DNA from: Haliotis rubra | Lineage: Eukaryota | Length of the DNA stretch: 64,000 bases | Assembly (NCBI RefSeq): GCF_003918875.1 | Contig: NW_025765956.1 | Span: 1 to 64,000 of the forward strand | Direction of reading: 5' to 3' | Shown here: positions 1 to 17,254 of the stretch, one piece after another | Position numbering within the stretch: the stretch's first letter is position 1 | How the letters are laid out: each line of letters starts with the position of its first letter | Notes under the pieces: generated by a model | What the model saw: the letters and a program-made list of their open reading frames with translations, nothing else | What the model was told of the DNA's origin: nothing | The model's database searches: none | Made by a program: the position numbers and the translations under genes

Positions 1-54
1 TCCTGTTTGTACCCTGTTCTGGACTCCAGACCTGGTGGAGACCCGGTCATACGA

Positions 55-109
55 TGACGTCACCACACCTACATGACGTCATCCACGACCCTGTGTCTGT
101 CTATATAAA
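55..109 (+). promoter_or_regulatory. CRE/ATF + TATA promoter of Polinton accessory gene
   Basis: TGACGTCA at 55-62 and 74-81, TATATAAA at 102-109, ATG at 162. Confidence 0.6.
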
Positions 110-161
110 GAGGCGTTTCTGTCAAATCATTGCAGATTCTGTTGTCACAAGAAAGAGAAGA

Positions 162-500
162 ATGGAATCGGATTCACTCGCGATAGGCTTAGGAGGAATG
201 CATTGTGATCTTGGTATGCTAAGCTATCAAACGAATTGAAAGCATTGGTGGAGCATGGAAACTGATCGCGTTTGAAGTCCTGATACCATCCTCCTTGAAA
301 GCCAAGTTATCGATATACCTCAGACCTCACTTGACCCGATGTCAGAGAAATTAATGAACATGCTTCCCCGGCTTATGGACCCCAAAACTTACTCCCTCTT
401 CTATAAAGCTTTGGAGGAATGTGTGGAGAAACAGGAAGCCATGACCTTGCTGGAGTCTCAAGACTCCCACGGACAAGGAACTGTCCACAAGTGTCCACTC
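162..500 (+). pseudogene. CARD-like death-fold domain, frameshifted; possibly the N-terminus of the NADAR protein
   Basis: Joined frames read LSNELKALVEH..EVL.TILLESQVID..MSEKLMNMLPRLMDPKTYSLFYKALEEC..MTLL. This resembles the caspase-2/RAIDD-type CARD pattern ([22 protein letters not shown]). Match made by eye only. Confidence 0.5.
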
Positions 501-504
501 CCTG

Positions 505-1038
505 GCTATTCTTCTATGGAATCAGTCACCGTTCAGCAACTTTCATCCAGCTGTGTTTACCTTGGATGGTGTTACATTTAATTGTGTTGAACAGTGTTAC
601 ATGTACTCTAAAGCCATGTACTTTGGAGATGACGACAGTCGCGGCAGCGTATTCTGCGCGAAGGCTGTTCCAGCAAAGCAAAAACGTCTGGGGCTGATGT
701 GTGAAAGGTTTCACTCAAACGGTGTGGGACACGGTCAGTCTGGAAGTGATGACCAAAGCGTCGCGGCTAAATTTTCCCAGAACAAGGACTTGAAACAGAG
801 ATTGATTCAATCCTACCCAAAGTCGTTAGCTGAAGCTAGTCCCTACGATCAACGATGGGGAATAGGAATGGGTGTATCTCGTCCGAATATTGACAAACCC
901 TGGACGTGGTCCGGGGAAAACAAGTTGGGAAAAGCACTCATGCATCTGCGTGACACGCTATTTGTTGTAGTGAGTGGCGTCATCATGCACGAGCCACGTG
1001 ACGTCATCCATGCACGCGTGACGCGCCACGTGACGTGA
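505..1038 (+). CDS. NADAR (YbiA-like) family hydrolase
   Basis: Motifs FFYG..PFSNFHP, F..VEQCYMYSKAMYFGD, AKFSQNKDLKQRL, LAEASPYDQRWGIG, GENKLGKALMHLRD. The N-terminal motif lies in shifted frames just before ORF 553-1038. Confidence 0.9.
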   Translation, partial: AILLWNQSPFSNFHPAVFTLDGVTFNCVEQCYMYSKAMYFGDDDSRGSVFCAKAVPAKQKRLGLMCERFHSNGVGHGQSGSDDQSVAAKFSQNKDLKQRLIQSYPKSLAEASPYDQRWGIGMGVSRPNIDKPWTWSGENKLGKALMHLRDTLFVVVSGVIMHEPRDVIHARVTRHVT

Positions 1039-1269
1039 TCATCCTGTAATATCTCTATAAAAGACTCTGATCCCATCGTGATTCGTCATCATGCTGTTCA
1101 CGCTGCTCTTTATTGCTTGCCACCTATCTCGAAGAGAGACACTTTATAGAACAGTTCAGAAAAGCCGTGCAAAGAGGCCATCCAGAAACAACACGATCGT
1201 GACGCCATTTGGAAGTGACGTCATTTGAAGTGGCGTCATAGCTAGCGCTGTTGGTGTTGCCCTATAAAA
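974..1269 (+). promoter_or_regulatory. Two tandem CRE + TATA promoters
   Basis: TGACGTCA at 999 and 1216 plus variants (TGGCGTCA, TGACGCCA, CACGTGAC). TATAAAA at 1056 and 1263, then TCAGTT initiator-like sites and an ATG at 1320. Confidence 0.55.
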
Positions 1270-1319
1270 CGCAGGATCGATCGAGCGGGTCATCAGTTGC
1301 ATCAGTTCAGTCGTTGCAG

Positions 1320-2596
1320 ATGGCATCTCACGGCAGCCTCCCTTCTTCCTTCGTCAGCGGCTACCGCATGCAAAGGACCTCGCTTCTGACATGGCCCATC
1401 TCACAACACCATGATGACTCAAAGCCAGTTATACAAGACCAACTACATGGATCTCCAGGACCGGCTGCGTGTGATGGAACAAAGTTGCCGTCGATCATCC
1501 GAACGCAAGCTGGCAGATATTCAGCCGAAAGAAACACTGTATGGCATGATGGGTCGCTTCTGTGAGTTGACTGAGGAAGACTATTACTGGATGGCGTATC
1601 ACCAAGACCACTTGCATTATCCTCTCCGGTAAAAGCCAACAACTCTGTTAAGCAGTCCTCATCGGTATCAACGATGCACATGCCAAAGGAAAATGCAGGG
1701 GAGACCTTCCTCAACAAGATGTTCCACATCGTGTTCAAGTTGAGGAATGGACGCCCTATGACCTATGACCATGGTGTGCTGTACAGCAAGCTGCTGGCCA
1801 AACTCCAGGTGAAACTCTGGCCTCACCCACCCAGCTATGATCTTCGATATGCCACCTGTACTCTACCTTTGTTCTCCAATGATCCAGAGGTCACCGACAT
1901 GACGCCCAAGCCCGTGCCTCGAAAAGGAATACCTCCCAAGACCACGCCTGCCAAGACTTCTCCAAAGAAGAAGAAGAAGGTCTCCACCCGCCCCTTCCCA
2001 AGGCACCCACCAAGATGACGTCACCTCCCCAGGGGACCCTGGCCGCGACTTCTCAAAGAAACAGAAAGAAGAAGGAGGAGGCCCCACCAAGAACAGTCAC
2101 CAAGAGACGTCCCCTCCCAAGACTACTCACCAAGAAGGCACCCCAAAGCTTCTAAGAGTCTCAAAGCACCCCAGACTCCAAAGAAACAGTTGGAATGACT
2201 GACTTGTGGGAGAGCGAAGGGTCAAGGGATCAGTCCTGGGGCTATCAGAGGGAGAGTTACCTCCAGATCTGCAAGACTTGTATGATCTACTCCCGATGGC
2301 TATCACCATGGAAGCAGAGCAAACAAAGGGCAGAGCAGAGAAGTGAAGCAGAGGGCTCAGAGACGACTTCAGTGACGGCTCAGAGACGGATCTAGTGATG
2401 ACTTCAGTGACGGCTCCAGAGACGGATCTAGTGATAGCTTCAGTGACGGCTCAGAGACGGATCTGGTGATGGCTTCAGTGACGGCTCCAGAGGAGGAGTC
2501 AGAGACTTTGCCGACATTCCCATGTTTAACGATGAAAACCATTTTCATCCCGGTCAAATGGACTTTTACGGTGTTCGACTTGCAATCCCAATGATC
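1320..2596 (+). pseudogene. Polinton accessory hypothetical protein(s), frameshifted; Pro/Lys-rich middle and repeat-containing C-terminus
   Basis: Consecutive ORFs 1411-1632, 1674-2018 and 2195-2395 downstream of a CRE/TATA promoter, KKKKK NLS-like run, AATAAA at ~2696. Confidence 0.45.
2365..2492. repeat. ~35-bp tandem repeat, ~3.5 copies
   Basis: GACTTCAGTGACGGCTC(C)AGAGACGGATCTAGTGAT repeated. Confidence 0.85.
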
Positions 2597-2865
2597 CACC
2601 TGAACTGGTGGTGATCTGTGGATGACCTGTTGTTGTTGATCTGTTAATGCATCATTATTATTGTTGATCTGTTTGCCATGTTGATGTTGTTCCTCAATAA
2701 ATTGTGAATTCCATTTTTCAAAGGTTTGTGTCTTCTATATCTTCAGGGATCTTAGCTCTTAGAGGTCATTTCGGTGCAACCCCCGCAGGGTGGTAAGACT
2801 AGTGTGTGTCAGTATGTCAGGGGACACTATCAGGGACAGTGTTAGACTCAGACCTGGTGGAGGCC

Positions 2866-3576
2866 ATGAGTCACCCCACTCACGTTACGTCATCCCTTTA
2901 CCATGTTAATTGCAGGCCCTACAGGGTCCAGGTAAAACATCGTTTGTCAAAAGCCTTCATGGAACATGTGTGTTTCAACCGGGGATCCTAGATCTTCCAC
3001 CTCAGGGCATCGTGTGGGTGTACAGTGAATGGCAACCCATGCATGAGGACTTGGAAGTTCTGACTTCGAGGTTAGGGATACCCTGACGTTTATTGCAGAA
3101 CCATGGGGGAAGACCAACCGCAGTTACCTGCAGGGTCTGGGGCTAAGACCGAGAAGAGGGTTTTGCCCTACGCCCCATTGGTTGATCATTGATGATTTGC
3201 TGGGCGACAATACCAAAGAGGAAGAAGCCGAAGTTCTGCGATGGTTTACCAGAAAAGTCATCATCGCCTAACCGTCCGTGTTGTACTTGACGTATAAAAC
3301 CTCTTTGCTTCATAGCCTCATCATCGCACCATTAGTTTAAATGCCCACTACATGGTGCTGTTTAAAACCCGAGGGACGCCTCGCAAATGGATCACTTGGC
3401 CAGACAAATCTTTCCAGGACAGACGGCCTTCCTTCGGGAAGCCTATGGAGGATGCCACTTTGGCTCCTTATTCCCTATTTGTTTCTGGACTTGAAACCGA
3501 CCACGGCCAAAGAGCACCGTTGTCACGGTCCCATCTCTTTCGTAACCCACCATCCTTTACATTCCCAAAGTCGTGA
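2866..3576 (+). pseudogene. Polinton FtsK/A32-like DNA packaging ATPase (frameshifted as assembled)
   Basis: Joined frames: HPFTMLIAGPTG(S)GKT (Walker A), LIIDDLL (Walker B), FTRKSHH, RTISLNAHYMVLFK, LARQIFPG. Confidence 0.9.
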
Positions 3577-4085
3577 TAAATAGAGATGAGGCGTCTACCC
3601 TGCGGCCAGTTGACCCAGAGCTGCCATGGGAGACAGCGGAAACAGACCCAGCCCATAAGCGTGCTGTTGCCACAGGGTTGTTTAAACCGATCCATAAAAC
3701 ACTCTTGACCACCTTGGGTCGTGATCCCACCGAACAACATCGGTCAGGTGTGCGGTTGTACGAAGTCACTAAGTGCTCCTCCTCTCCTCTGCTTACCTCC
3801 TCCTCCAAACAAAAGACGTTCCTTAAAGCAGTTGTACCCACAGCACCCACCATGAACACGTTTGTCCCTGTCGAGGTACGTATCGTGCCTCTCCTGCTGC
3901 CTTCTCTCCCCTTCTTCTTTTCCGGCCTCTCCCCTTCATTTCCATCGTCTCCCTCTCTCCCACCATGATCCAGCCCTTTCAGCCCTTGACCCAGTACCAC
4001 CAGCACCAAAGGCACCATCAAAGAAAGCGTCACGGGTGCTAAACGCTTCCAGCCGGGCACCTTACACAAGGAAGCCACAGAAAGC

Positions 4086-4727
4086 ATGCCCGCCCGCAGA
4101 AAAGTCAAACCCATCATCATTGAAAGCGACTCCCTTCGGCAGAAGGCGTGGCTGTCAAAGGGCGTCATCGACTGTTGCAATGGTTTGTCATTGCCATTTG
4201 AGAAATCTGCGAGCAGGACGTGTTCCTTTGAAGAGCGCAGCACAAGACCCTGGCTGTTGAGACACCAAGACATGCTGACCAAGATTGCGAATCCGCGACT
4301 ACCTTTGGATGAACGCCTGAGTTACCTGATGAAGCGCCAGTGGAAGTGGTACGTTGGCTGGTGTGTTGACCCGTATCTTGTTGAACTGGCAGTCCTACCT
4401 ACAGGAAAACAGCAGAAGCCCTCAGCACCTCGCCGTCGCCGCCGTGCCCCTAAGCAACCCCCAGGGCGTCGCCAAGTCACCCACCGACAAGAGAACAAAG
4501 AAGAAGAAGAAGAAAGAGGTCACTTCACCCTCAGCCCCAGGTGCAGCCTTGACCCGGATGGTGTTACTGAGAAGTCAAAGAAAAGAAGAAGACCACAACG
4601 GCGGCGTACCCCCACTCCCTCCAGCGACATTACCACCATAAATGAGGCCTCCCACCCCATCCTGGTCAGTTCAGTGGTAGCAGCTGCAGGGACGACACCA
4701 TCATCATCATCATGTCGGCACGTTTGA
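4086..4727 (+). CDS. Polinton hypothetical basic protein (213 aa)
   Basis: Open 213-aa ORF with Arg/Lys-rich C-terminus. The segment LLRHQDMLTKIANPRLPLDER weakly resembles the next gene. Confidence 0.4.
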   Translation: MPARRKVKPIIIESDSLRQKAWLSKGVIDCCNGLSLPFEKSASRTCSFEERSTRPWLLRHQDMLTKIANPRLPLDERLSYLMKRQWKWYVGWCVDPYLVELAVLPTGKQQKPSAPRRRRRAPKQPPGRRQVTHRQENKEEEEERGHFTLSPRCSLDPDGVTEKSKKRRRPQRRRTPTPSSDITTINEASHPILVSSVVAAAGTTPSSSSCRHV

Positions 4728-5048
4728 AGCGTCACAAAAAGCTCTGTCATGTGTGTAGTCCTTCTGCGACACCAGCCATGCGACAGGCTATTTTGAAACA
4801 GGCCCCATCGGAACTGATTCAAGCCATCTGTGAATGCGTGGTGAATTTGTATGGAGGCAACATTCCTATGACAGCACAGCAACGTCAACGTTTACAAAGC
4901 ATGGGTCACTGATGCATACGTTGATGAAAAGAAGGTGTCTGTGTCCAAAGCACGTCAGCTTTTACAGCAGAAAGGAAGGGGGATTAGGTCTCTTGTCTGC
5001 CTTGGCATCGGTGGTGGGTCCTTGGTGTCTGGCCTGTTGGGTAGATGA
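4712..5048 (+). pseudogene. Conserved Maverick small virion protein (pVI/membrane-active-like), frameshifted
   Basis: MSARLKRH..RQAILKQAPSELIQAICECVVNLYGGNIPMTAQQRQRL...GGLGLLSALASVVGP matches the conserved Maverick pattern (AIL..A..LI.AICE...N...GNIPLT ... GGFL..L). Confidence 0.75.
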
Positions 5049-5157
5049 TCCTCAAGGAAGATCCTCAAGGAAGATCCTCAAGGAAGATCATAAATAGGGG
5101 ACACATCCTAGATTGACGTTAGTTGCATCTGCACCGTCCTACCACCAAGATGGAAGC

Positions 5158-6093
5158 ATGCCGCGGAAGATGGTGATGGTCCCAGAAGGGTATGGCAAAG
5201 TCTGCAAGAAGAAAAACGTCAGCGACATTTGCTCAAGTCAACCTGTTGGAACAGAAACGATGTGCACCACACTTCACGATATGGATACCCTCGTCCGTGA
5301 TGACACGGTTCCTTTTAGGGACCGAGGCAACAGTATAACACCTTGTTGCAACACACCTTGGCGTTTCAGAGACCAAGCCGCTGTCAAACCACGACCTTTA
5401 GAGGCCACGGGCACCCCAGGGGTTGGCACTCCAGGGTTGGCACACCCAGGACTGGATCTCCTCACCGTAAGTGCGGTTGACTTACTGAGCCGTGTATCTA
5501 CATGTCAGCGTAGAGGTCGCCTTCCTAAGAAGGAGTCCGCGAAGCGATTAAAATAAGCAGTGGCTCATGGTTTGTTGTTCTTTTTGTTTCCAGAATCCGA
5601 TGATGTCGAAGCCATTCTGAATGAAGTCGTGCAAAGCGGTTCCCAAAAGCGCTACAGACCAAAGGCCAGGCAGTTGATGGCCCGTATTCGTGCTCATCCC
5701 GACTTGGGTTGGAATGAGGCGAGTCAATTCGTGGTGGTGGGGAACCCATGCCTGGGGCGCACATGAGGTGGATCTCATCAATGATCTTGTTGACAGCGTA
5801 CCAAATTAGGCCCTCCACGGGGTTGGAATATTCTGGGTCAGTATCTCGCTTCCAGCAACGTACCCCATGAACTGATTGGTAACCCTCTACGTTGGTCCTG
5901 GATGATGAAAACCAAAGGGTCATCCACCCAGCCTCCTCCTGACACCCCCGTGAAGCGTCCACACCCTCCACCCGCTGACTTGTTTTTGACACCCCCTGCA
6001 TCCAACCTTCCTCTGGAACCCCAGAAGAAGAAAAAAGCTGTAGAGACCCCCTCCTCCCCTCTCAACCGGGTGCGTCAGTGGATTCACTTTTAA
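5158..6093 (+). pseudogene. Conserved Maverick protein of unknown function upstream of the integrase, frameshifted
   Basis: MPRKMVMVP start; ILNEV..KRYRPKARQLMARIRAHPDLGWNEASQF..G....DLINDL; NVPHELIGN; ends W(I)HF. This is the pattern of a core Maverick gene. Confidence 0.7.
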
Positions 6094-6132
6094 TAAAAGG
6101 GAGCAGAGGGTGATGTCAACGACAGTGTCACC

Positions 6133-7364
6133 ATGAGACGTCCAAAGAGAAACAACATCAGCAAAGCATCATCATCATCATCGTCTTTGTCACCTGCATG
6201 GACACGATGGCTCCACCACACCTATTACGATCCCAAACACCCAGCAGGCTATGGAGGGTGGCTTGCCTTGTGGCAAGCAGCAGGACATCAAGCCAAAGCA
6301 GGACATCAAGCCAAAGCAGGACCCAGGAAGGGGAAACAAAACAGGGCCAAAGGCCACCAACGCCAGGTGCGGCAATGGTTGAAAACCCAGGACGCGTACA
6401 CCTTGCACAAACCAAGCCCGGCGGCTCGTTTCCCAGGGATCATTACCGTGTGGGTGGCGTGGATGGTGTGGCAAAGCCGATCTGGCGATCTCCTTGCGTA
6501 TCAGAGAACCAAGGCAACGGTATTTGCTGTGTGTCATGATGTTTTCTCCCAAAATGGCTTGGGTGCAACCCATGAAGAAATAAGACCGGTGCCACTTTGA
6601 TAGAGACCTTTCAGCGGATCCTGAAACAAGCCAAGGACGTGTGCCATCCCAGTTACAGACCGACAAAGGGACTGAATTTGTCAATGCCCCTTTTCAAGCC
6701 TTCCTCAAGAAGCGGGGTATTCATTTCTACACCAGTCAAAACCAGAAACCAAAGCCTCTGTGGTGGAACGTTTTCAAGGACGTTGAAAAACCGTATGTGG
6801 CGTTACTTCACCCAACAAAGGGACGCGCCACTACCTGAAGGCCTTACCCCAACTGATGCATTCCTACAATCATGCGTGTCCATCGATGCGATTGGACAAC
6901 GCCCGTGGATGTACGTCCTAGCGCTCCTACGATGAAATTCGAGTGTTGGATCACATGGAACGGCAGAAGAAGCAGAAGCAGCGCCAACTCAAGAAAACAA
7001 AGAAGAAGAAGAAGAAGAAGTACCCTCTCTTGTTACCCGGGACCCGTGTCCGTTTGAACAAGACCAAGGGTACGTTTGACAAAGATACCTTCCCAACTGG
7101 ACCACGAACTGTTCACCGTGGATCGGGTGGTGAAAGGACGTGTTCCTCCTGTCTACCAAGTGAAAGATGATGGAGAAGGAAGTGCAAGGCACCTTTTACC
7201 CGCAGAACTGCAACCCATTCAGAAAACGGATGATGTGTACACAGTGGATCCAGGTCCTGAAACGACGACGTCGTCAAAAAAAGGATGAAGTGCTGGTGAG
7301 ATGGTCAGGATACCCTGCCAGCTTTGATTCATGGATCCCTGCGGCTCATCTGGTCTTTAAATAG
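6133..7364 (+). pseudogene. Retroviral-like (rve, DDE) integrase with C-terminal chromodomain, frameshifted
   Basis: YYDPKHPAGYGG, VRQWLKTQDAYTLHKP, LQTDKGTEFVN, VERFSRTLKNRMWRYFT, VRLNKTKGTFDK, ELFTV, GTFYP, and chromodomain VLKRR..EVLVRWSGYPASFDSWIP. Confidence 0.95.
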
Positions 7365-7406
7365 CGTGGCCTCCAGTCTCCCACCGTCAGTGGAGCCTCC
7401 ACCATC

Positions 7407-7730
7407 ATGCAGAGTGAACCGATCTCAAGGTGCAAGGAGAGCGGCAAGCCATCCCCACGCTGGTGTTGCTTTGGCATGGACTTGCCACGAAGTGAAGTGG
7501 TGTTTTTCTCCCAAGTGTTTCTGATATATGGCGTGGTCATCATGAGCATGGTTCAGTTGGCGCATTGGACAACGGTGAGAAACAGTTGTGGACAGCTTTG
7601 TTGGCCAGTAGCTTGGGGTACTTGCTCCCACAACCCACGTTGGTGTCGTCGTCGTCGTCATCATCATCCACGTTGCCACCTTCCTCGGCTACATCTCCAA
7701 CCCCCTCTGTATCCAGTCTGGTTCCCTAAG
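7407..7730 (+). pseudogene. Small two-TM Polinton membrane protein
   Basis: WCCFG..EVVFFSQVFLIYGVVIMSMVQL then (shifted frame) LWTALLASSLGYLLPQP, a motif typical of invertebrate Polintons. Confidence 0.65.
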
Positions 7731-7742
7731 AGAGAGAGAGAG

Positions 7743-8805
7743 ATGTCGGTGTCTGTGTTTTCCAAGCGGGACTTTTACGTGACCTTACCCAGCGATGCGT
7801 CCATGGATGTTCATCCCGACAACAGAGTGAATCATTACGAAGTCAAACTACCCTTTCCCATTCAAGTGAATCGTCAGGAGTGGGAAGTCGGCGTCAGTGA
7901 ACTTCATTTCCCCATGACATGGTACAATGTGTCATACCCTTCAACTGGTTTGTCCTTCATGTGAACTTGGAACGCATGACCCGGACTTACAGTTCAGCAG
8001 AAGCGATCACGACCGTGATAGAAAGGCCAGGCCTCATCAGAGCCGTCAGCGAAAAGGTCATTATTCCAGAAGGAGTGTATTCCTGTAAGCCAACTGGTCC
8101 AGAGACTGAACATCCTGCTTCAACACACCTGTGCACGGCTGTTGGACAAGCAGCACGCAAGATGTTTACCAACAGGATGCCGAGCTCGTTCACCGTCACC
8201 GTGAACTACCCCAAAGACCTCCGATTTGAAATGCGTGGCAAAAAAGCATGTCAACTTTATGCTCTCCCACCCGAAAGACATGTGCAGAGCCATCACGGGT
8301 TCCTCCTGCAGAACCTCAAGTCAACCTGACCACGATGCCATCAGGTCTGCCTACACCACCGATTGGTGTTGCCTGCTCCTTTAGTACGTATGCTGGGATT
8401 CATACAGCTCCCCATGGTGGGCGAAGCAGGAGAAATAAGCCAAGTCTCTGCTCAGCCTGTGCAAGTGGCTGCGTTTGACCGCCCTCTACCGTCGTGGGTG
8501 AACAGGAAGCACACCATCTGGCTGGTTTTGATACCGTGTACGTCTACTCGGATGCAGTGGAAGATCAAATCGTGGGGGATACCATGGCTCCCATACTGAT
8601 GTATGTCCCGTGTGGCGCCAGATGATGGAAGACAGCGTCGTGATCAAAACCCCTCAGCACCTACGCTACATGGGATTGCGTCAGGGGAACCACGGATGCC
8701 ATTCGAATCTATTTAACGGATGACGTAGGACGTCTCGTGCCATTCCAGACTGGGAAGACCATCGTGACACTTCATTTCCGTCCCCGTCGTCTGGGTACGT
8801 ACTGA
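7743..8805 (+). pseudogene. Minor capsid (penton) protein, frameshifted
   Basis: N-terminal FYVTLPSDASMDVHPDN...EWEVGVSELHFPMTWYNV; C-terminal YVYSDAVEDQIVGDTMAPIL...IRIYLTDDVGRLVPFQTGKTIVTLHFR. Confidence 0.9.
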
Positions 8806-8813
8806 GAATCAGC

Positions 8814-9197
8814 ATGGTAGGACATCAGTGTATCAGACTCCGCAGCGGCAGTGGTTTGGGTGGTCAGCAGCGAGGAGGCGGCTTAGCCGTGTACCGAGGA
8901 CGCATTCATCAACGAGGGAGAGGTTTCGGTAACATCTTGGGAAACTTGGGACGTTCAGCGCTCTCCATCCTCAAGACGGTGGGAAAATCCGCTCTCAAAT
9001 CAGGTGTCAAGATGTTGCCGGGATTGGTGCAAGATATCCGTTCAGGACACCGAAGTGTGGGGGACAGTTTGAAACATCATGGAAAACAAGCCTTACTCGC
9101 CACCTTGCGACAGCACCCCCCACCAGGATCACCTGCTCGCAAACGAAAACGGAAACAGTCCGTGGGATCCACCAAGAAACGTAAACCCTTGTTTTGA
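8814..9197 (+). CDS. Basic core protein (adenovirus pVII-like) with protease-cleavage-like sites
   Basis: QQRGGGLAVYRGRIHQRGRGFGNILGNLGRSALSILKTVGKSALKSG..., basic C-terminal tail. Follows the penton gene as in other Mavericks. Confidence 0.8.
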   Translation: MVGHQCIRLRSGSGLGGQQRGGGLAVYRGRIHQRGRGFGNILGNLGRSALSILKTVGKSALKSGVKMLPGLVQDIRSGHRSVGDSLKHHGKQALLATLRQHPPPGSPARKRKRKQSVGSTKKRKPLF

Positions 9198-9247
9198 GAG
9201 AAGGCGTCATTTGGCTTCAAGTCGTTGGACAGTGCAGACGTATCAGC

Positions 9248-9726
9248 ATGAGTGCATTCGATGTCCCCGATACGGAATGGGTGTCTCAAAAGATCAGGCA
9301 CAGAAGTTGTATGTGGATATATCCCCATGGAGACCCTCAGAGGATATTCCTTCTCCTCTGTCATCCTCATGGACACAACCTGGATACAGCTAGAAGAATC
9401 CTACTCACCCCGGGTATGCCAAGTTTTATCAACGTGCGAGGTCGTTTCGAACATGGCCTATACAGATGGCCCAGTGTCCTTATGACATGGCCATGGCTGG
9501 CTATTTCTATCATGGACGAGGTGATAGTGTGATCTGTTATTGTTGCGGCCTGAAAATTCATCGATGGGAAGCCACAGACCAACCCTGGCGAGAACACCTG
9601 AAGCATGCCAAAGTCCCTTGTGAATACTTGTGCCTGTTTTGTCCTGAGGAAGAAATCAATGACAACTACAGACAACTGGTGGCCAAAGGAGAAGAAAGAA
9701 GAATGCAAGAGAGCAACGTGCTTTGA
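9248..9726 (+). CDS. Single-BIR-domain (IAP-like) protein, frameshifted N-terminal part
   Basis: MAMAGYFYHGRGDSVICYCCGLKIHRWEATDQPWREHLKHAKVPCEYL is a canonical BIR core with CxxC...H...C zinc ligands. Confidence 0.9.
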
Positions 9727-9888
9727 ACACAGTACAACACCAGCAACCACCTGTAGTTGTTGGGGTCGAGATGTCCCTGATCAGGCAGCATAAAGGGCCG
9801 TCCAGATGAAAGAGGAGTTCAGTTCAACACCAGGCACCGTAGGGTCAAGACGTGTTGTGCAGACCTGCGGTCCAGATCAGCGGTCAAG

Positions 9889-11224
9889 ATGATGCGCCGA
9901 GATGCCTGTGAATGCTCCAAGGCCCAACTGGATCTCTTTTCTGTGCCCCCTGTGGTGACGTCCGTCCAAGAAGGTCAGTGGATTCGATACAGCCCTCTGG
10001 CACCCCCTTCGGTCGCGGGCCCCCTCCAATTTAACATTGCTAACCCTGTCAATGCCTACATCGATTTGAGCCAGTGTTACCTCCGCATCTGCCTCAAAAT
10101 CAAGAATACAGATGGTACGAATGCAGTTCGTGAGGGCGATCACGCACTCGCCGTGTCCACGGTGAACAACATGATGCATTCCCTCTTTCGTGAAGTGCGT
10201 GTACAAGTGGGACACAACCAACTAGAAATTACTCCTTCCATGGGTACCTATCCCTACCGAGCCTATTTGGAAACGTTGCTGAGTTATGGGAAGGCAGCCA
10301 AAGGGACCCATCTCCAGTGTCCAGGATGGTACACCGATGAAGCTGGAAAAATGGATCACTTTAATGCTGGCCCAGAATGCCAACGCCCGGACTTGTCACA
10401 GCACGACAAGGGGTCATTCTACCCACCCGAGGGCGTGGAACTGACAGGACGTCTCCACTGTGACCTGTTTCTCCAAGACCGGTACCTGGTGGATGGAGTC
10501 CCCATGAAACTAGAACTGATTCGCGGCCAGTGATTTCTACTTGATGAGTGCTGGAGACGTCGAGTGCCGATTTGAACTGACCAAAGCCGAGTTTTCGTGC
10601 GCCAAGTCAACATTGATCCTGCCATGCAGGGAACAACACGCGTGAAACACATGTCACCAGGAGTCACGGCCAAATATCCTTTGACCCGAGTCCAAGTCAC
10701 AGCCCACGACATCTCAGGAGGAGGACGCGATTTCCACAAAGATCAACTGATTGGAGGCCAACTGCCCAAACGAGTGGTGTTGGGATTGGTGGACAATGAT
10801 GCTTTGCCGGCAGCAAGGAGAAAGAACCCCTACCATTTCAAGCACAACAACGTGACCAGTCTCAAGCTGAAACTCAATGGGCAAGAAGTGCATGGCACCG
10901 AAATCCAAAAGCGACTTTCAGGACAACAGTGCCTCGCTCAAACAGTTGTACATGAACCTGTTCCGCAACACGGGACACCTGTGGCAAGAACATCCCTGCA
11001 ACCTCACCCTGGACGAATTCAGGAACGGATTCACCGTGTGGGTGGTGGATCTGACGGCAGATCTGGGTGCAGATGAAGGGTATAACTACCCACCGACAGA
11101 CGGGCAAGTTGGGACTTGAACTTCAGTTTGCAGAACCCTACCACGCCCGTCACGCTCGTCTGCTACGAGGAATACGAAAGCGTTTTGGAAATTGATCGGT
11201 TCCATAGCGGCTCTGATGGTCTAA
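9889..11224 (+). pseudogene. Major capsid protein (double jelly-roll), frameshifted
   Basis: CECSKAQLDLFSVPPVVTSV..YSPL, YIDLS, NNMMHSLF, YPYRAYLETLLSY, LTGRLHCDLFLQDRYL, AKYPLTRV, GQLPKRVVLGLVDN, NPYHFKH, YEEYESVLEID. Confidence 0.95.
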
Positions 11225-11226
11225 GG

Positions 11227-11756
11227 ATGGACAGCGGCGACAGTGGCTTGACGACCAGGCACTTGAACGCCTACGTACAACAGGATCCCCTGCTGCGACC
11301 CCTCTACCAAGGTACCTTTGCCCGAGATCACTTTGCCACCACCGTGCTGTGTGAACAGCAGGAGGGACATTATCCTAAAGCCTACATTGTCAATACGGAC
11401 CCCAGCCATCTCCCAGGACAACACTGGGTGTGCGTGTATCGTCCAGTACCCGGTGTCATGGACTACTTTGACAGTTATGGACTCCATCCCTATCAACAGC
11501 ATCCAGACTTTCGGAATGTCATGACCTTCGCCGGATGGCTCCAACAACGGTGGAATGGCCAGTCACTTCAACCCTGGTTCAGTGCCTCTTGTGGAATGTA
11601 CTGTTTGTATGTACTGGCTCATCGTGCCCGTGGATGGTCTTTGACGAAGTGATGGAACAGTTTGATCCCTACGATACCCTCGTCAATGAAGAACGTGTAA
11701 GGCGTTGGTTTCAACCGCTGACGCCTGACAGACAACAACAACAACGCTGGCCATGA
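11227..11756 (+). CDS. Adenain-like cysteine maturation protease (one late frameshift)
   Basis: YIVNTDPSHLPGQHWV (His), YFDSYG (Asp), LQPWFSASCGMYC (Gln, Cys). Confidence 0.95.
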
Positions 11757-11803
11757 TCCACACCCCTGCCAAAGGACACAACCTTATCGTTCTGATGTGA
11801 TGA

Positions 11804-11842
11804 TGTTACAGTTCTGATGTTACAGTTCTGATGTTACAGTTC
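11804..11842. repeat. 16-bp tandem repeat at the 3' end of the protease gene
   Basis: GTTACAGTTCTGAT units repeated ~3 times. Confidence 0.7.
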
Positions 11843-12120
11843 ATACCGTTTGTAAACAAAAGATCAGGGACGCCCCTAATCCTGACTCTTTTGTCAAAGT
11901 GTTCTTGTTAGCGGGGGAAATAAAACGTTTGAAAAATGTCAACCTAGTGTTGTTATTATTGTTGTTGGCATTGAAACGAACCTTTCTTTTGAGAGAGATG
12001 GATGGCCCTGAAAAGGGCCGTTTTTTCCGAGTGTACTTCACTCCAGGGACCACAGTGGGGTCATACATTGGCAGGGATGAATGGTCATCTTTGTCTTGAC
12101 GGGGCACTTGCTCCCATGGG

Positions 12121-12309
12121 TCAAGCGCGGATGTACGTGTCCTTCAAGACAGTGCCACAGTACACACATTGGAAGGTACCACGATAGTCATCAGTCCCAT
12201 TAGCGTAAACAGGTAGGCAGCCATGACATTGTTGACACTGCCATGCCGGCAAGGGGGGTGGCGATGCTGTGTCCATTAACTCTAAATCCCAGTTCTCCAT
12301 TCTGTCCAT
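12121..12309 (-). CDS. Small C4 zinc-ribbon protein (may continue into ORF 11841-12107)
   Basis: PPPLPAWQCQQCHGCLP...FQCVYCG; TATA (CTATATAG) at 12340-12347 upstream on the minus strand. Confidence 0.6.
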   Translation of the reverse strand: MDRMENWDLELMDTASPPPLPAWQCQQCHGCLPVYANGTDDYRGTFQCVYCGTVLKDTYIRA

Positions 12310-12339
12310 TGTAACACTGCTTCGGTCATTCCGCTCATC

Positions 12340-12521
12340 CTATATAGTGAGAGCTCACGATCATGACGTCAGCGGTGCCACGTCATAACCCTCACGCGCG
12401 ACCATGACGTCATCGATACTACGTCATTACCCTCACGCGCGACCATGACGTCATCGATACCACGTCATCGATACCACGTCATCGACGACACGTCATCGCT
12501 GTCTGGTCGCCCATATATAAA
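12340..12521. promoter_or_regulatory. Bidirectional promoter: CRE array flanked by two outward-facing TATA boxes
   Basis: TGACGTCA at 12364, 12405 and 12446 plus several ACGTCA half sites, a 41-bp direct repeat, TATA elements at 12340 (-) and 12514 (+), and divergent ORFs on both sides. Confidence 0.7.
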
Positions 12522-12623
12522 CTCCAGCATGGGTCAGTGAGAGCTATCTTCATGCAACATGAATACAAGAAAAGTAGAAGTCATGCGACCGACGCCTTAC
12601 AGGAAAAATTGTGGTAGGCAGCA

Positions 12624-12962
12624 ATGTCTACGATGCAGCCCTACCTTACAAGGAAGGCTGACATCAAAAGGGAAGAGACAGAAGCAGCGGCAGCCCCACC
12701 ATCCACGGCAGTACCACCTCCGCCACCGGCATGGCAATGTCTACCACCCAATTGGAAGTTCATTATATGCCAAACGTGTTGGAAAGCCTTGCCGTCCAAC
12801 CAATTCGATGTCACCCCAGGTGCACCGTACTACGTGTGTACCTACTGCGGGGGCGGCGTCCGCAAAGGGGCTAACCATCTCCACGACGAAGTCTGCCCCG
12901 GGAAATTTATTTTCCGGGGCCTCGACCTGCTCTGTCTATGTACCATCGCCACCACAAAGTGA
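12624..12962 (+). CDS. Small C4 zinc-ribbon protein (112 aa)
   Basis: Intact ORF: PPPPPAWQC...CQTCWKALP...YVCTYCG, with additional His/Cys residues. Confidence 0.65.
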   Translation: MSTMQPYLTRKADIKREETEAAAAPPSTAVPPPPPAWQCLPPNWKFIICQTCWKALPSNQFDVTPGAPYYVCTYCGGGVRKGANHLHDEVCPGKFIFRGLDLLCLCTIATTK

Positions 12963-13079
12963 GGTCTCACCTTTCCGTCCATACCATCACAACGGCCCTT
13001 TTCAGGGCCACCCACCTGGCTCGAAAGAATGCTCCATCCAATGTTGTTTTAACCACACACACACACTAACACTTGTCTA

Positions 13080-13541
13080 GCCACGCCATCGTGTCCGCCT
13101 CACCCCCTCTCTCCCTCCCTTCCCTCTCCTTTCCTCTCCTTCCCTTCCCTTCCCTCTCCGTCCCGTCCCGTCCGCCGCTCGTCCGTTCCGCCATCTTGAA
13201 AGGCGTCTACGCTCGCGAGATCCCGCGAGAATCCACGAGATCCCGCGAGATCTCACGCGATCCCACCGGATGGGACGCCATCTTGAAACGCGTCCGCCAT
13301 CTTGGCCCGGAGGTGACGTCATCGTCATGTGCGCGCACCCACCGGAACCGGTCGTGACGTCATCGCGATGCGTGCGCACCCACCGGAACCGGAAGCACCG
13401 GAACCGGAACCCGAGTGATCTCCCCTGATGGCGGCACATCCGGTCACCGTGGGTCGCCATCTTGATCCAAGATGGCGGCGCCCATGGGGACCGGATGTGC
13501 CGCCATCTTGAAAAGACCCCAGGGTGACGTTGCACACTACT
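13080..13541. repeat. Putative right terminal inverted repeat of the Polinton
   Basis: Polypyrimidine tract, then a very GC/CpG-rich motif-dense region, ending ACTACT. The partner TIR is outside the window, so the inner boundary is approximate. Confidence 0.7.
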
Positions 13542-15129: not shown

Positions 15130-15990
15130 GTCCCTTGTCAACTTGGTTCATTTAAACCCATTCTTCCTGCAGGGCATCGCCAAATTCGTTGAGTGTGGTC
15201 GGTGGTTGTTGGGTGACAAGGGTGGGTGATAAGTCTGGACTGAGTGCTGGCCGTGGTGATGTTCTCCTGCAGGACGTAATCTGAAACAATACCAGCCCTG
15301 TGTGCTCTTGCGTTGTAATCCTAAAACACGTCCATGTCGGAGCCAAAATTGCACCATGTGGGCCTTCAGGATGTTGCCATGGTAGTACAAACCAGTGACA
15401 TGTCCCTGAATGAGACGTAAAGATGTTCTGTCAGTCACAGTGATACCCCCACACTATTGGTGACCGACCCCAAATCAATTGTTCTGTCTAACGTTAACGG
15501 CATGAAGCCTTCATTCCGTCTATGTCTCACTGTGCCAAGGAAGTCGAAAGTAAAGCTTTTGATTTATCGGAAAACTTAACGTTTGCTCATCGACAATTGG
15601 GCCAGCGCTCATGCTCTTGACACCAACGACGTCTTGCAGTGACAGTCCGACAATCGTGGTATAACACGTGGACGTCGGGTATGCAGGTTCCATCTGTCTA
15701 ACCGATTACAAATCGCCTGTTTTTTACTCTAACACATGTAACTCTATGAAGCTCATCTCCAATTTGATACGGTGTTGGTCACGGTTTCGTATCACATGTC
15801 GTTCTGATGAAACGTTCTTGGGCGCCAGTTGTCGCTCTTCGTCGTCGATCTTGGTCGACCAGGTTTTTTCTGTGTTGACATCGTGATAGTAACCTGCTAA
15901 TTACTGAGTGTGAAAAATGAAGAGCTCGTACCACAATGCTCTGTCTTGTTCCAGCTACAAACATGCCAATTGCACGAAGCCGAACACGTT
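15130..15990 (-). mobile_element. Degenerate Tc1-family transposase remnant
   Basis: HTH region AGTRQSIVVRALHFSHSVISRL...R.TT.AQERFIR and C-terminal PALSPDLSP; many stops. Confidence 0.75.
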
Positions 15991-17254
15991 TAATTAAGTT
16001 GAAAACAAAACCAGGACAATTTCAGTCTGGTTTTCATCACTGAAGTGTACAGCAGCACATTGACACGATTCACTGCAAATTCTGAATTTTACTTCGACCA
16101 TGTTCACGAGCATATCATGGAAAACCAGCACGAAATAACACCCTGGGATATTCATTTTCCCAAGTAATATCAGGCCAAAATCGAATATACCCTAGTTTTT
16201 GTGACAGTATATTGATGTTAAGTTGTATGCTTCTCTATGTACATTTTTTACTGTTTATCAGTGAGGTATTTACTCTGCGTGTACAGGGACGACCGTAAAC
16301 AGGATGTGCAGCTCGTAGAAACGTCTTGAGGTTGACCTGGAACACCACTCATCTCATTTCAGTTCGAGCTGGAAACGCAGTTCATTGCTGTCCTTCTGAT
16401 TTCTGGCCATATATTCCGTTCATTGTGATGATTTTGTTTATTTTTTATATCTTGTGTATAGAACGTTCCGGGAATATGGAACAGTGATATCGATCTTTCC
16501 TTGTTTGTTCGAAAAGAGCTAGTCCCAGTCGACAATGCTCGCATTGGCACTTTGTCCTTGTATAACGGTTGTGTTTTGATTTAGTTTCCAGAATAGTCCA
16601 GATGAATCCAGTCTGGATTGTCTGTAACCAATTTGTAGGCACCAAGATAGTATCAGGTTGAGACCATATCCTAGATGACATAACGGCTAGGACTTTCAAA
16701 GAGGAGTCTACGGCTCAATGTCAATATTTTATTGAATGAGTCTATTGGGAGACCTTAGAGGATAAAGAACAATCCAGTTCAAGTAGCAAAACAAAAAATG
16801 TATGCTGGAATGAGGCGAAGGAAACCTCTAACCTTTCCATCCCCTGCGAAAAAAAAAACCCCTTTACTTCACTAAATAAATAAATAACAGATCGCGATTG
16901 CTCACAGGATATTTAGTTCGGATTGGTAATGGACACTAAACACGGCAAAGTCTAACCATTAAGACGAGATTAAGTCTTCGAATGTTGTTGTTCAAACAAA
17001 AATATACGTTGTTTGGGTGCCATTAAATGATTTCGAGGTGATATCTTCTCGTCGTTAGTGTCCATTTTTCTGTTTAATTTCTTTACGGCACACAGTTGGC
17101 ATCAAGGCAAAGCAGGGATAGTTCCACAATGTGTCTGTAAGTGTTTGCAATGACACGTCGTAGAAAGGAGAAGTACAATATATAGAGTTGCAATCAGTTA
17201 CAAATAAAGAAAATTATTTGGTTAGGTGTACAATATATAGAGTTGTATATAATG

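Follow-up and report, generated by a model that had tools for sequence, protein, structure and literature searches.

A CARD–NADAR fusion encoded by Polintons of the abalone Haliotis rubra, a candidate eraser of DNA ADP-ribosylation

Phage AdfN (T4 gp30.3) is a proven counter-defence NADAR that acts against DarTG1 (PMC11257639), and NADARs are also reported from giant viruses, iridoviruses, ascoviruses and invertebrate RNA viruses (PMC9503650). All NADAR subtypes tested are described as cutting guanine-linked ADP-ribose in vitro and as specific in cells (PMC11125620), and stand-alone NADARs may act on other substrates (PMC11125620, PMC11543638); NADAR is further reported to clear cytidine marks (PMC12945103), and the guanine-N1 mark of PARP15 resisted a NADAR (bioRxiv 2026.03.31.715305). 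Among large integrating elements, Polintons and adintoviruses carrying IAP and Bcl2 genes are known (PMC8502044).

We have analyzed a 64,000-nucleotide stretch of DNA from the abalone Haliotis rubra (contig NW_025765956.1, positions 1 to 64,000 of the forward strand; hereafter the window), which begins within a Polinton encoding a CARD and a NADAR domain. The Polinton NADAR resembles AdfN in being a viral NADAR without a toxin of its own and a proposed cleaner of viral DNA, but the subfamily position is a histidine in AdfN, whose writer is known, whereas the Polinton NADAR has a glutamate there, a CARD, and an animal host. The viral NADARs surveyed previously are likewise cargo of eukaryotic viruses and predicted to oppose host ADP-ribosylation, although the available sections of that survey list neither Polintons nor CARD fusions (PMC9503650). 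The described Polintons and adintoviruses share the core genes, terminal repeats and anti-apoptotic cargo, but CARD, NADAR and recoding are not described in the available parts of that report, its supplementary gene maps aside (PMC8502044). Relative to the solved structures 8BAU and YbiA (2B3W) the fold, the catalytic Glu-Lys-Glu and most ADP-ribose contacts are the same, but the Polinton NADAR is fused to a CARD, resides on an integrating animal DNA virus, has two contacts changed, and its activity is predicted. Viral CARD-only proteins similarly represent a virus-borne CARD, a form also found in a related element (L115), but the Polinton CARD is otherwise fused to an enzyme, a BIR or PC4. 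Our literature search, whose scope took in few subscription papers, turned up no Polinton reported to have a NADAR, a CARD fusion or readthrough.

The family A Polinton and its CARD–NADAR gene

The contig starts within the element, referred to here as Polinton family A (Table 1), and the left end lies outside the window; in sibling copies a 1081-aa protein-primed polymerase B (pPolB; DNA_pol_B_2 E 1.3e-30) is encoded upstream. Judged from its gene content, the element is a Polinton, with polymerase B, an rve integrase, an ATPase, a protease, a capsid protein and terminal inverted repeats, and its terminal AGTAGT motif is presumably a typical Polinton end. The protease and capsid, weak by Pfam, both have counterparts in a second group, family B (described below), whose own core is recognized by Pfam (polymerase E 5.6e-44, rve E 2.2e-14). 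The capsid candidate is 25-30% identical to its family B counterpart, and its assignment leans on what we take to be the usual position and size of this gene in Polintons. Boxes of the sequence TGACGTCA recur at 999, 1216, 2016, 12364-12446, 13314 and 13355, in front of several genes and within 41-bp repeats close to the right end, and transposase-like fragments, judged by eye, lie outside the Polinton at window 15148-16021.

Table 1. Features of the window element and locations of the family C and D NADAR genes elsewhere in the genome. Coordinates are window positions; E values are from Pfam.
Feature	Position or loci	Strand	Evidence and remarks
Polinton family A, right-hand 13.5 kb	1..13541	+	94.5% to two siblings over 10 kb
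Promoter-like block	55..108	+	CRE boxes TGACGTCA at 55 and 74, TATATAA at 102; layout shared by siblings
CARD coding part, broken and noisy	162..445	+	Sibling frame PF00619 E 5.5e-14
Linker, ~13 aa, disordered in model	446..502	+	Sibling alignment, structure model
NADAR, YbiA-type glutamate, TGG first codon	503..973	+	PF08719 E 7.7e-31; ~7 indels
Packaging ATPase, broken in window copy	2820..3580 (approximate)	+	Sibling frame Pox_A32 E 2.2e-6, over cut-off
Integrase and chromodomain, broken in window copy	6097..7290 (approximate)	+	Sibling frame rve E 2e-13, Chromo E 7.9e-8
BIR (IAP-type) gene	9394..9726	+	PF00653 E 1.6e-18
Probable major capsid protein, broken in window copy	9781..11120	+	Weak Capsid_N E 0.16
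Adenovirus-type protease	11086..11652	+	Peptidase_C5 E 0.0079, under family cut-off
Right terminal inverted repeat, AGTAGT end	12990..13541	-	~550 bp, 96% to left end of two siblings, inverted
Family C	L081-L084, L087, L089		321-329-codon frame ending in NADAR; unassigned N-terminal domain and proline-rich linker
Family D	L085, L086, L088, L090, L092		Stand-alone NADAR beside integrase

An earlier note, made from the letters of this region, had described a NADAR domain behind a single CRE/TATA promoter, and both are borne out: Pfam matches a NADAR over window 445-1035, and the CRE and TATA elements, a putative promoter, stand ahead of the gene in the siblings as well. The ATG at 162 is the start of the sibling frame, and the gene ends near 973, the extension to 1038 being peculiar to the window copy. 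The same note held that no stop intervenes between the two parts and that two 1-bp shifts would fuse them, and here it was mistaken; two frame-3 stops lie between 162 and 276, and about 18 small indels separate the window copy from its siblings (CARD about 9, linker 2, NADAR about 7). Its proposed upstream CARD is matched by Pfam in the sibling frame but not in the window piece alone, and the helical peptide that it had singled out is a damaged form of the sibling CARD.

With window positions 100-1100 as query, 243 candidate copies were found in the 1.38-Gb genome, of which 40 were scored. The same genome encodes a protein labelled Haliotis rubra by NCBI, at 100% identity. Substitutions in the window CARD amount to 23-25% relative to 19 siblings, which differ among themselves by 1.3% on average. 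The concentration of divergence in this segment, against 3-5% in the NADAR and mostly 1-3% in the remainder of the element, would suit a real, fast-evolving CARD variant of this copy, reflecting neither assembly noise nor decay, but we think this unlikely. The changes are spread 19/18/26 over the three codon positions, unlike the dN/dS of ~0.2 of true CARD divergence; G>A and A>G predominate and 1-2 nt insertions are plentiful; the closest other copy among the 40 scored is at most 82% identical; and the segment falls within the first 500 bases of the contig, in an element with 4-37 gaps per kb. Assembly noise at the contig end is probably responsible. A short-read contig (run X2, record 9) spans window 381-1008, from the end of the CARD into the NADAR; window 177-352 has no short-read contig cover in four runs, a gap that is uninformative.

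The fusion holds independently of the broken window copy because siblings keep unbroken frames. Comparison of sibling copies, which the earlier note had proposed for fixing the frame, places CARD and NADAR in one reading frame: an unbroken 260-aa CARD–NADAR frame is present in five of the 19 siblings (L003, L005, L007, L018 and L020) and a full frame in five of nine additional family A loci, and three more of the 19 have a frame open across both domains with its end shifted. In the 260-aa frame Pfam identifies the CARD at residues 7-87 (E 5.5e-14) and the NADAR at residues 109-257 (E 3.7e-43). That the two domains are joined in a mollusc Polinton is thus seen in natural copies, with Pfam and PDB matches to both, and we regard the fusion as real with near certainty. 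In 15 pairwise comparisons of six copies dN/dS is 0.18-0.38 for the NADAR and 0.12-0.46 for the CARD, and by this measure purifying selection has acted on the NADAR and the CARD alike since families A and B diverged.

A tRNA-Met(CAT) gene, presumably initiator-like, lies ~125 bp upstream of the CARD–NADAR start in eight of the 19 siblings (for example L005:1364-1435); other copies, including that in the window, are without it. A tRNA gene is also present at eight of the nine further family A loci, one of them called as Leu-CAA and one 1.7 kb away.

The fusion appears in none of the protein sets searched. No CARD+NADAR protein was present in 75 matches among 924 candidate proteins, among the best 150 of 14,426 representatives (54 of these Pfam-scanned), among 18 CARD-PC4 relatives or, in a weak search, among longer proteins. 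Eight CARD–NADAR fusion proteins were looked up in a collection of 15 billion proteins and none was present, and IMG/VR yielded distant phage and giant-virus NADARs only, and no CARD-PC4.

The NADAR and CARD domains and their relatives

The sibling NADAR scores 148 bits against PF08719 (cut-off 35.1), and its closest solved structure is Phytophthora nicotianae 8BAU (profile E 2.7e-17). A model with pLDDT >90 in this domain matches 8bau (E 7.8e-11) and E. coli YbiA, 2b3w (E 1.4e-8), by Foldseek; a single-sequence fold prediction (pLDDT 38) was discarded. Residues were matched to 8BAU using an inferred +2 numbering offset, with their roles taken as reported in PMC11543638. E43, K50, K75, G78, R79, W89, E125, D130 and W133 of 8BAU are kept as E135, K142, K165, G168, R169, W179, E215, D220 and W223, the catalytic E43/K50/E125 corresponding to E135/K142/E215, and two ligand contacts are changed (D86 to Q176 and R93 to S183). 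The Polinton NADAR is probably an active base-ADP-ribose hydrolase. By its sequence, glutamate E215 assigns it to the YbiA subfamily, apart from the DarT1 antitoxins; a DarT1-NADAR system would have an aspartate where this glutamate stands, and a darT neighbor. No transferase was found among 22 scanned window frames, the lone ART match (E 0.15) falling inside the integrase.

Four Polinton families in the abalone genome, A to D, carry a NADAR, those of families C and D (Table 1) being 46-54% identical to the family A NADAR. The N-terminus of family C had appeared PC4-like by eye, which was not confirmed on follow-up. In an unrooted tree of 83 NADAR rows (quick search, no clade test), A and B form a clade with SH-aLRT 92 and C and D one with 96, and both group with two unnamed proteins at 90; the Polinton NADARs lie apart from those of oyster, scallop and Mytilus edulis. 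At least seven partial NADAR matches fall within 90 kb at G000:C2156:3438104-3525944, and are perhaps exons of a host gene array, and a database protein (P0201) has an L1 ORF1 RBD-like domain ahead of its NADAR. A NADAR-like remnant in a Haliotis asinina protein was rejected as too weak (E 0.01).

The CARD scores 52.4 bits in the sibling frame (PF00619 cut-off 23.9). A profile of 14 copies matches NOD1 (E 7.7e-5), with the CARDs of cIAP1, RAIDD, Dronc and caspase-9 about equal, and the Atlas assigns it to CARD clusters at 0.91. Among the CARD matches is PDB 6J52, a 'Caspase recruitment domain-only protein', which we take to be of iridovirus origin. The earlier claim of an N-terminal death fold is upheld by these Pfam and profile matches but gains little from structure, the helical model having a pLDDT of 50-60 and Foldseek returning only CARD9 at a non-significant E of 4.7.

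The same CARD, at 70-80% identity, keeps varied company. It can be followed by a PC4 pair with a CxxC tail; of 14 other loci, 12 have it adjoining or in frame with a BIR, seven of them as an unbroken fusion; and a related metagenome element has a CARD-only form in the same slot (L115). NADAR is absent from the relatives L030, L077-L080, L114 and L115. Because the CARD is interchangeable between BIR, PC4, NADAR and nothing, and NADAR is missing from relatives, the pairing of the two domains may be loose. The coupling of the eraser to a death-fold decoy, as originally put forward, is correct as to the fusion, but the coupling is weaker than was claimed, as this CARD also occurs alone or with BIR or PC4; the odds that the CARD serves as a decoy are about even.

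Several further arrangements were observed. In the Polinton family of loci L116-L128, CARD and BIR share one frame beside the ATPase. At L030, L077, L078, L080, L133 and L134 a CARD-PC4 gene, ending in TAA where it was read, is followed by a BIR in a frame of its own, and NADAR is absent. Contig C86 contains several CARD-PC4 matches ~2.5 kb apart.

An in-frame stop codon ahead of the family B NADAR

Family B encodes CARD-PC4-PC4-CxxC followed by a single in-frame TGA-C and then, in the same frame, a NADAR lacking an ATG. Its NADAR is 72-78% identical to that of family A, whereas the polymerases are only 33-38% identical. Of 32 CARD-PC4 loci examined five are without NADAR, and among the 27 family B loci with NADAR the junction is TGA-CT in 26 and TAA in one decayed copy. 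A codon-free pattern applied genome-wide, which requires exact flanks and so misses decayed copies, gave TGA-C in 29/29 junctions, the codon next to the TGA being CTA in 16, CTC in 12 and CTG in one; these counts are not independent because family B copies are related. The Leu codon after the junction doubles as a NADAR residue.

The NADAR frame beyond the stop behaves as coding sequence. It is open for at least 149 codons in 17 of the 27 loci, and in these the terminal NADAR stop varies (5 TGA, 12 TAA) whereas the junction is TGA in 16 of the 17. In four family B lineages the NADAR dN/dS is 0.18-0.35, with CARD and PC4 alike, and the first 12 codons after the TGA have 30 synonymous and 15 non-synonymous differences over ~40 and ~175 sites, respectively, in six pairs. 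The first in-frame ATG is at NADAR codon 33, beyond the catalytic Glu, and in all four B copies the sole AATAAA comes after the NADAR, ~20 nt past its stop. Codons 106-135 have a silent variation of 0.06-0.12 per site, against 0.2-0.6 elsewhere, which may reflect either recent recombination or an RNA element. Public annotation ends at the family B TGA and omits the NADAR, and H. asinina proteins, compared at the protein level, stop at the same residues.

UGACUA, present in 16/29 junctions, is described from animal viruses as the motif of type II readthrough (PMC13517186); a stimulatory 3' RNA structure accompanies several, though not all, cases. Family B shares with the readthrough described for alphaviruses and PSIV the in-frame UGA-C, often followed by CUA, that gates an enzyme domain (PMC13517186), but it is a DNA virus-like element, has CUC or CUG in 13/29 junctions and has no shared hairpin; a search for a 3' stimulatory RNA structure after the TGA found no common hairpin or fold (z +0.9 to -2.7). 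Taken together, these features make alphavirus-type stop-codon readthrough the likely mode of expression of the family B NADAR.

It is unlikely that the TGA is instead spliced out within a 54-69 nt intron, A-to-I edited, or decoded as selenocysteine. A short intron is formally possible in 22/27 loci, with GTAAY 5 nt before the stop in 25/27 and a frame-keeping AG at +49 in 16 and at +58 or +64 in six more, but no single acceptor is common to the family B loci, and such an intron would take out the FFYG-FSNF strand, which shows protein-like change over its first 12 codons. Editing has no shared duplex around the junction to act on, and for selenocysteine there is no Rfam SECIS match in five loci, the one weak pattern falling within coding sequence and occurring in family A too; the position of the AATAAA so close behind the NADAR stop also counts against it. 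A suppressor tRNA had been considered and was ruled out, the adjoining tRNA being tRNA-Met.

Family A has no PC4, and the codon aligned to the family B TGA is TGG in 85/85 matches; the next base is free to vary and is T in 26/85. This TGG could have arisen from the stop codon or could correspond to the Trp that ends the PC4 protein. Judging by the junction that the two families share and by the placement of the family A NADAR within family B diversity, in the tree that has no clade test, we infer that the direction was from B to A.

Proposed function and its alternatives

We propose that in family A the CRE/TATA promoter drives a single 260-residue CARD–NADAR protein. The NADAR is predicted to release ADP-ribose attached to N2 of guanines in the Polinton DNA itself, a mark that some host ADP-ribosyltransferase has likely put there. 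The CARD would likely engage the CARD-dependent death and immune complexes of the host, either as a decoy or as a tether. Family B would make a short CARD-PC4 protein together with a minor long form by stop-codon readthrough. PC4 binds single-stranded DNA, and the PC4 pair would anchor the eraser to the single strands formed in strand-displacement replication. Family A would be the derived form, and as it would have lost PC4 and the stop, every chain would carry the enzyme. We put at roughly 0.5 the probability that the protein clears viral DNA of guanine ADP-ribosylation added by the host, with the fused CARD as a decoy, and the balance tilts slightly in favor of a counter-defence role. The Polinton with CARD–NADAR carries a BIR gene of its own, which we count as death-pathway context.

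The earlier proposal of an eraser of DNA ADP-ribosylation is strengthened by the kept catalytic residues and by purifying selection; its weak point is the writer. A CARP-1-like host enzyme, which that proposal had invoked, is not favored: the host is a gastropod, whereas CARP-1 homologues are reported chiefly from bivalves (PMC12945103), and a search for the Scabin-like family in the host gave no matches, with the control equally silent. There are 50 exon-level matches to host PARPs in the genome, but these many PARPs are not an obvious writer because a NADAR is reported to have left the PARP15 guanine-N1 mark in place.

Two alternatives were weighed against the eraser. The NADAR could be active in metabolism or RNA clean-up, on small ADP-ribose or riboflavin-type N-glycosides, with the CARD as a passenger, namely a leading module, well expressed, onto which recombination has joined BIR, PC4 or NADAR. 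YbiA-type NADARs are reported to cleave riboflavin intermediates (PMC11543638), many DNA-virus NADARs have been argued to act on small ADP-ribose derivatives (PMC9503650), the CARD does exchange partners, and the empty writer search (Scabin-like family, control silent) can be counted on this side also. However, purifying selection has acted on both domains since the A/B split, the family B linkage to PC4 suggests nucleic acid, and NADAR is recurrent in four Polinton families, and we hold both the metabolic role and the passenger CARD to be doubtful. Still less probable is a non-host writer, such as a bacterial pierisin/DarT-type toxin or the enzyme of a co-infecting virus, against which cell and element would be shielded together: guanine writers are reported to be common in bacteria (PMC12945103) and no host writer was found (Scabin-like search, control silent), but no foreign writer partner is seen either, and the presence of a CARD and a BIR suggests a link to host death pathways.

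With the eraser as the preferred reading, the family A and B NADARs likely point to a DNA-marking defence in abalone. A broader and rather speculative proposal is that gastropods use CARD-linked immunity to label invading DNA with base-linked ADP-ribose, and that the Polintons counter this with a NADAR eraser aimed by a CARD decoy and PC4 and, in one lineage, dosed by UGA readthrough. If so, gastropod DNA marking would be an animal counterpart of bacterial DarTG1, and programmed UGA readthrough would be a recoding that we have not found in print for Polintons. The family B junction offers a ready test of readthrough in a DNA virus-like element, with family A as its stop-free counterpart. These elements bear on the function of animal NADARs and on base-linked DNA ADP-ribosylation as an animal antiviral mechanism, and a NADAR selected in four Polinton families would offer a defined enzyme for tracking down both the mark and its writer.
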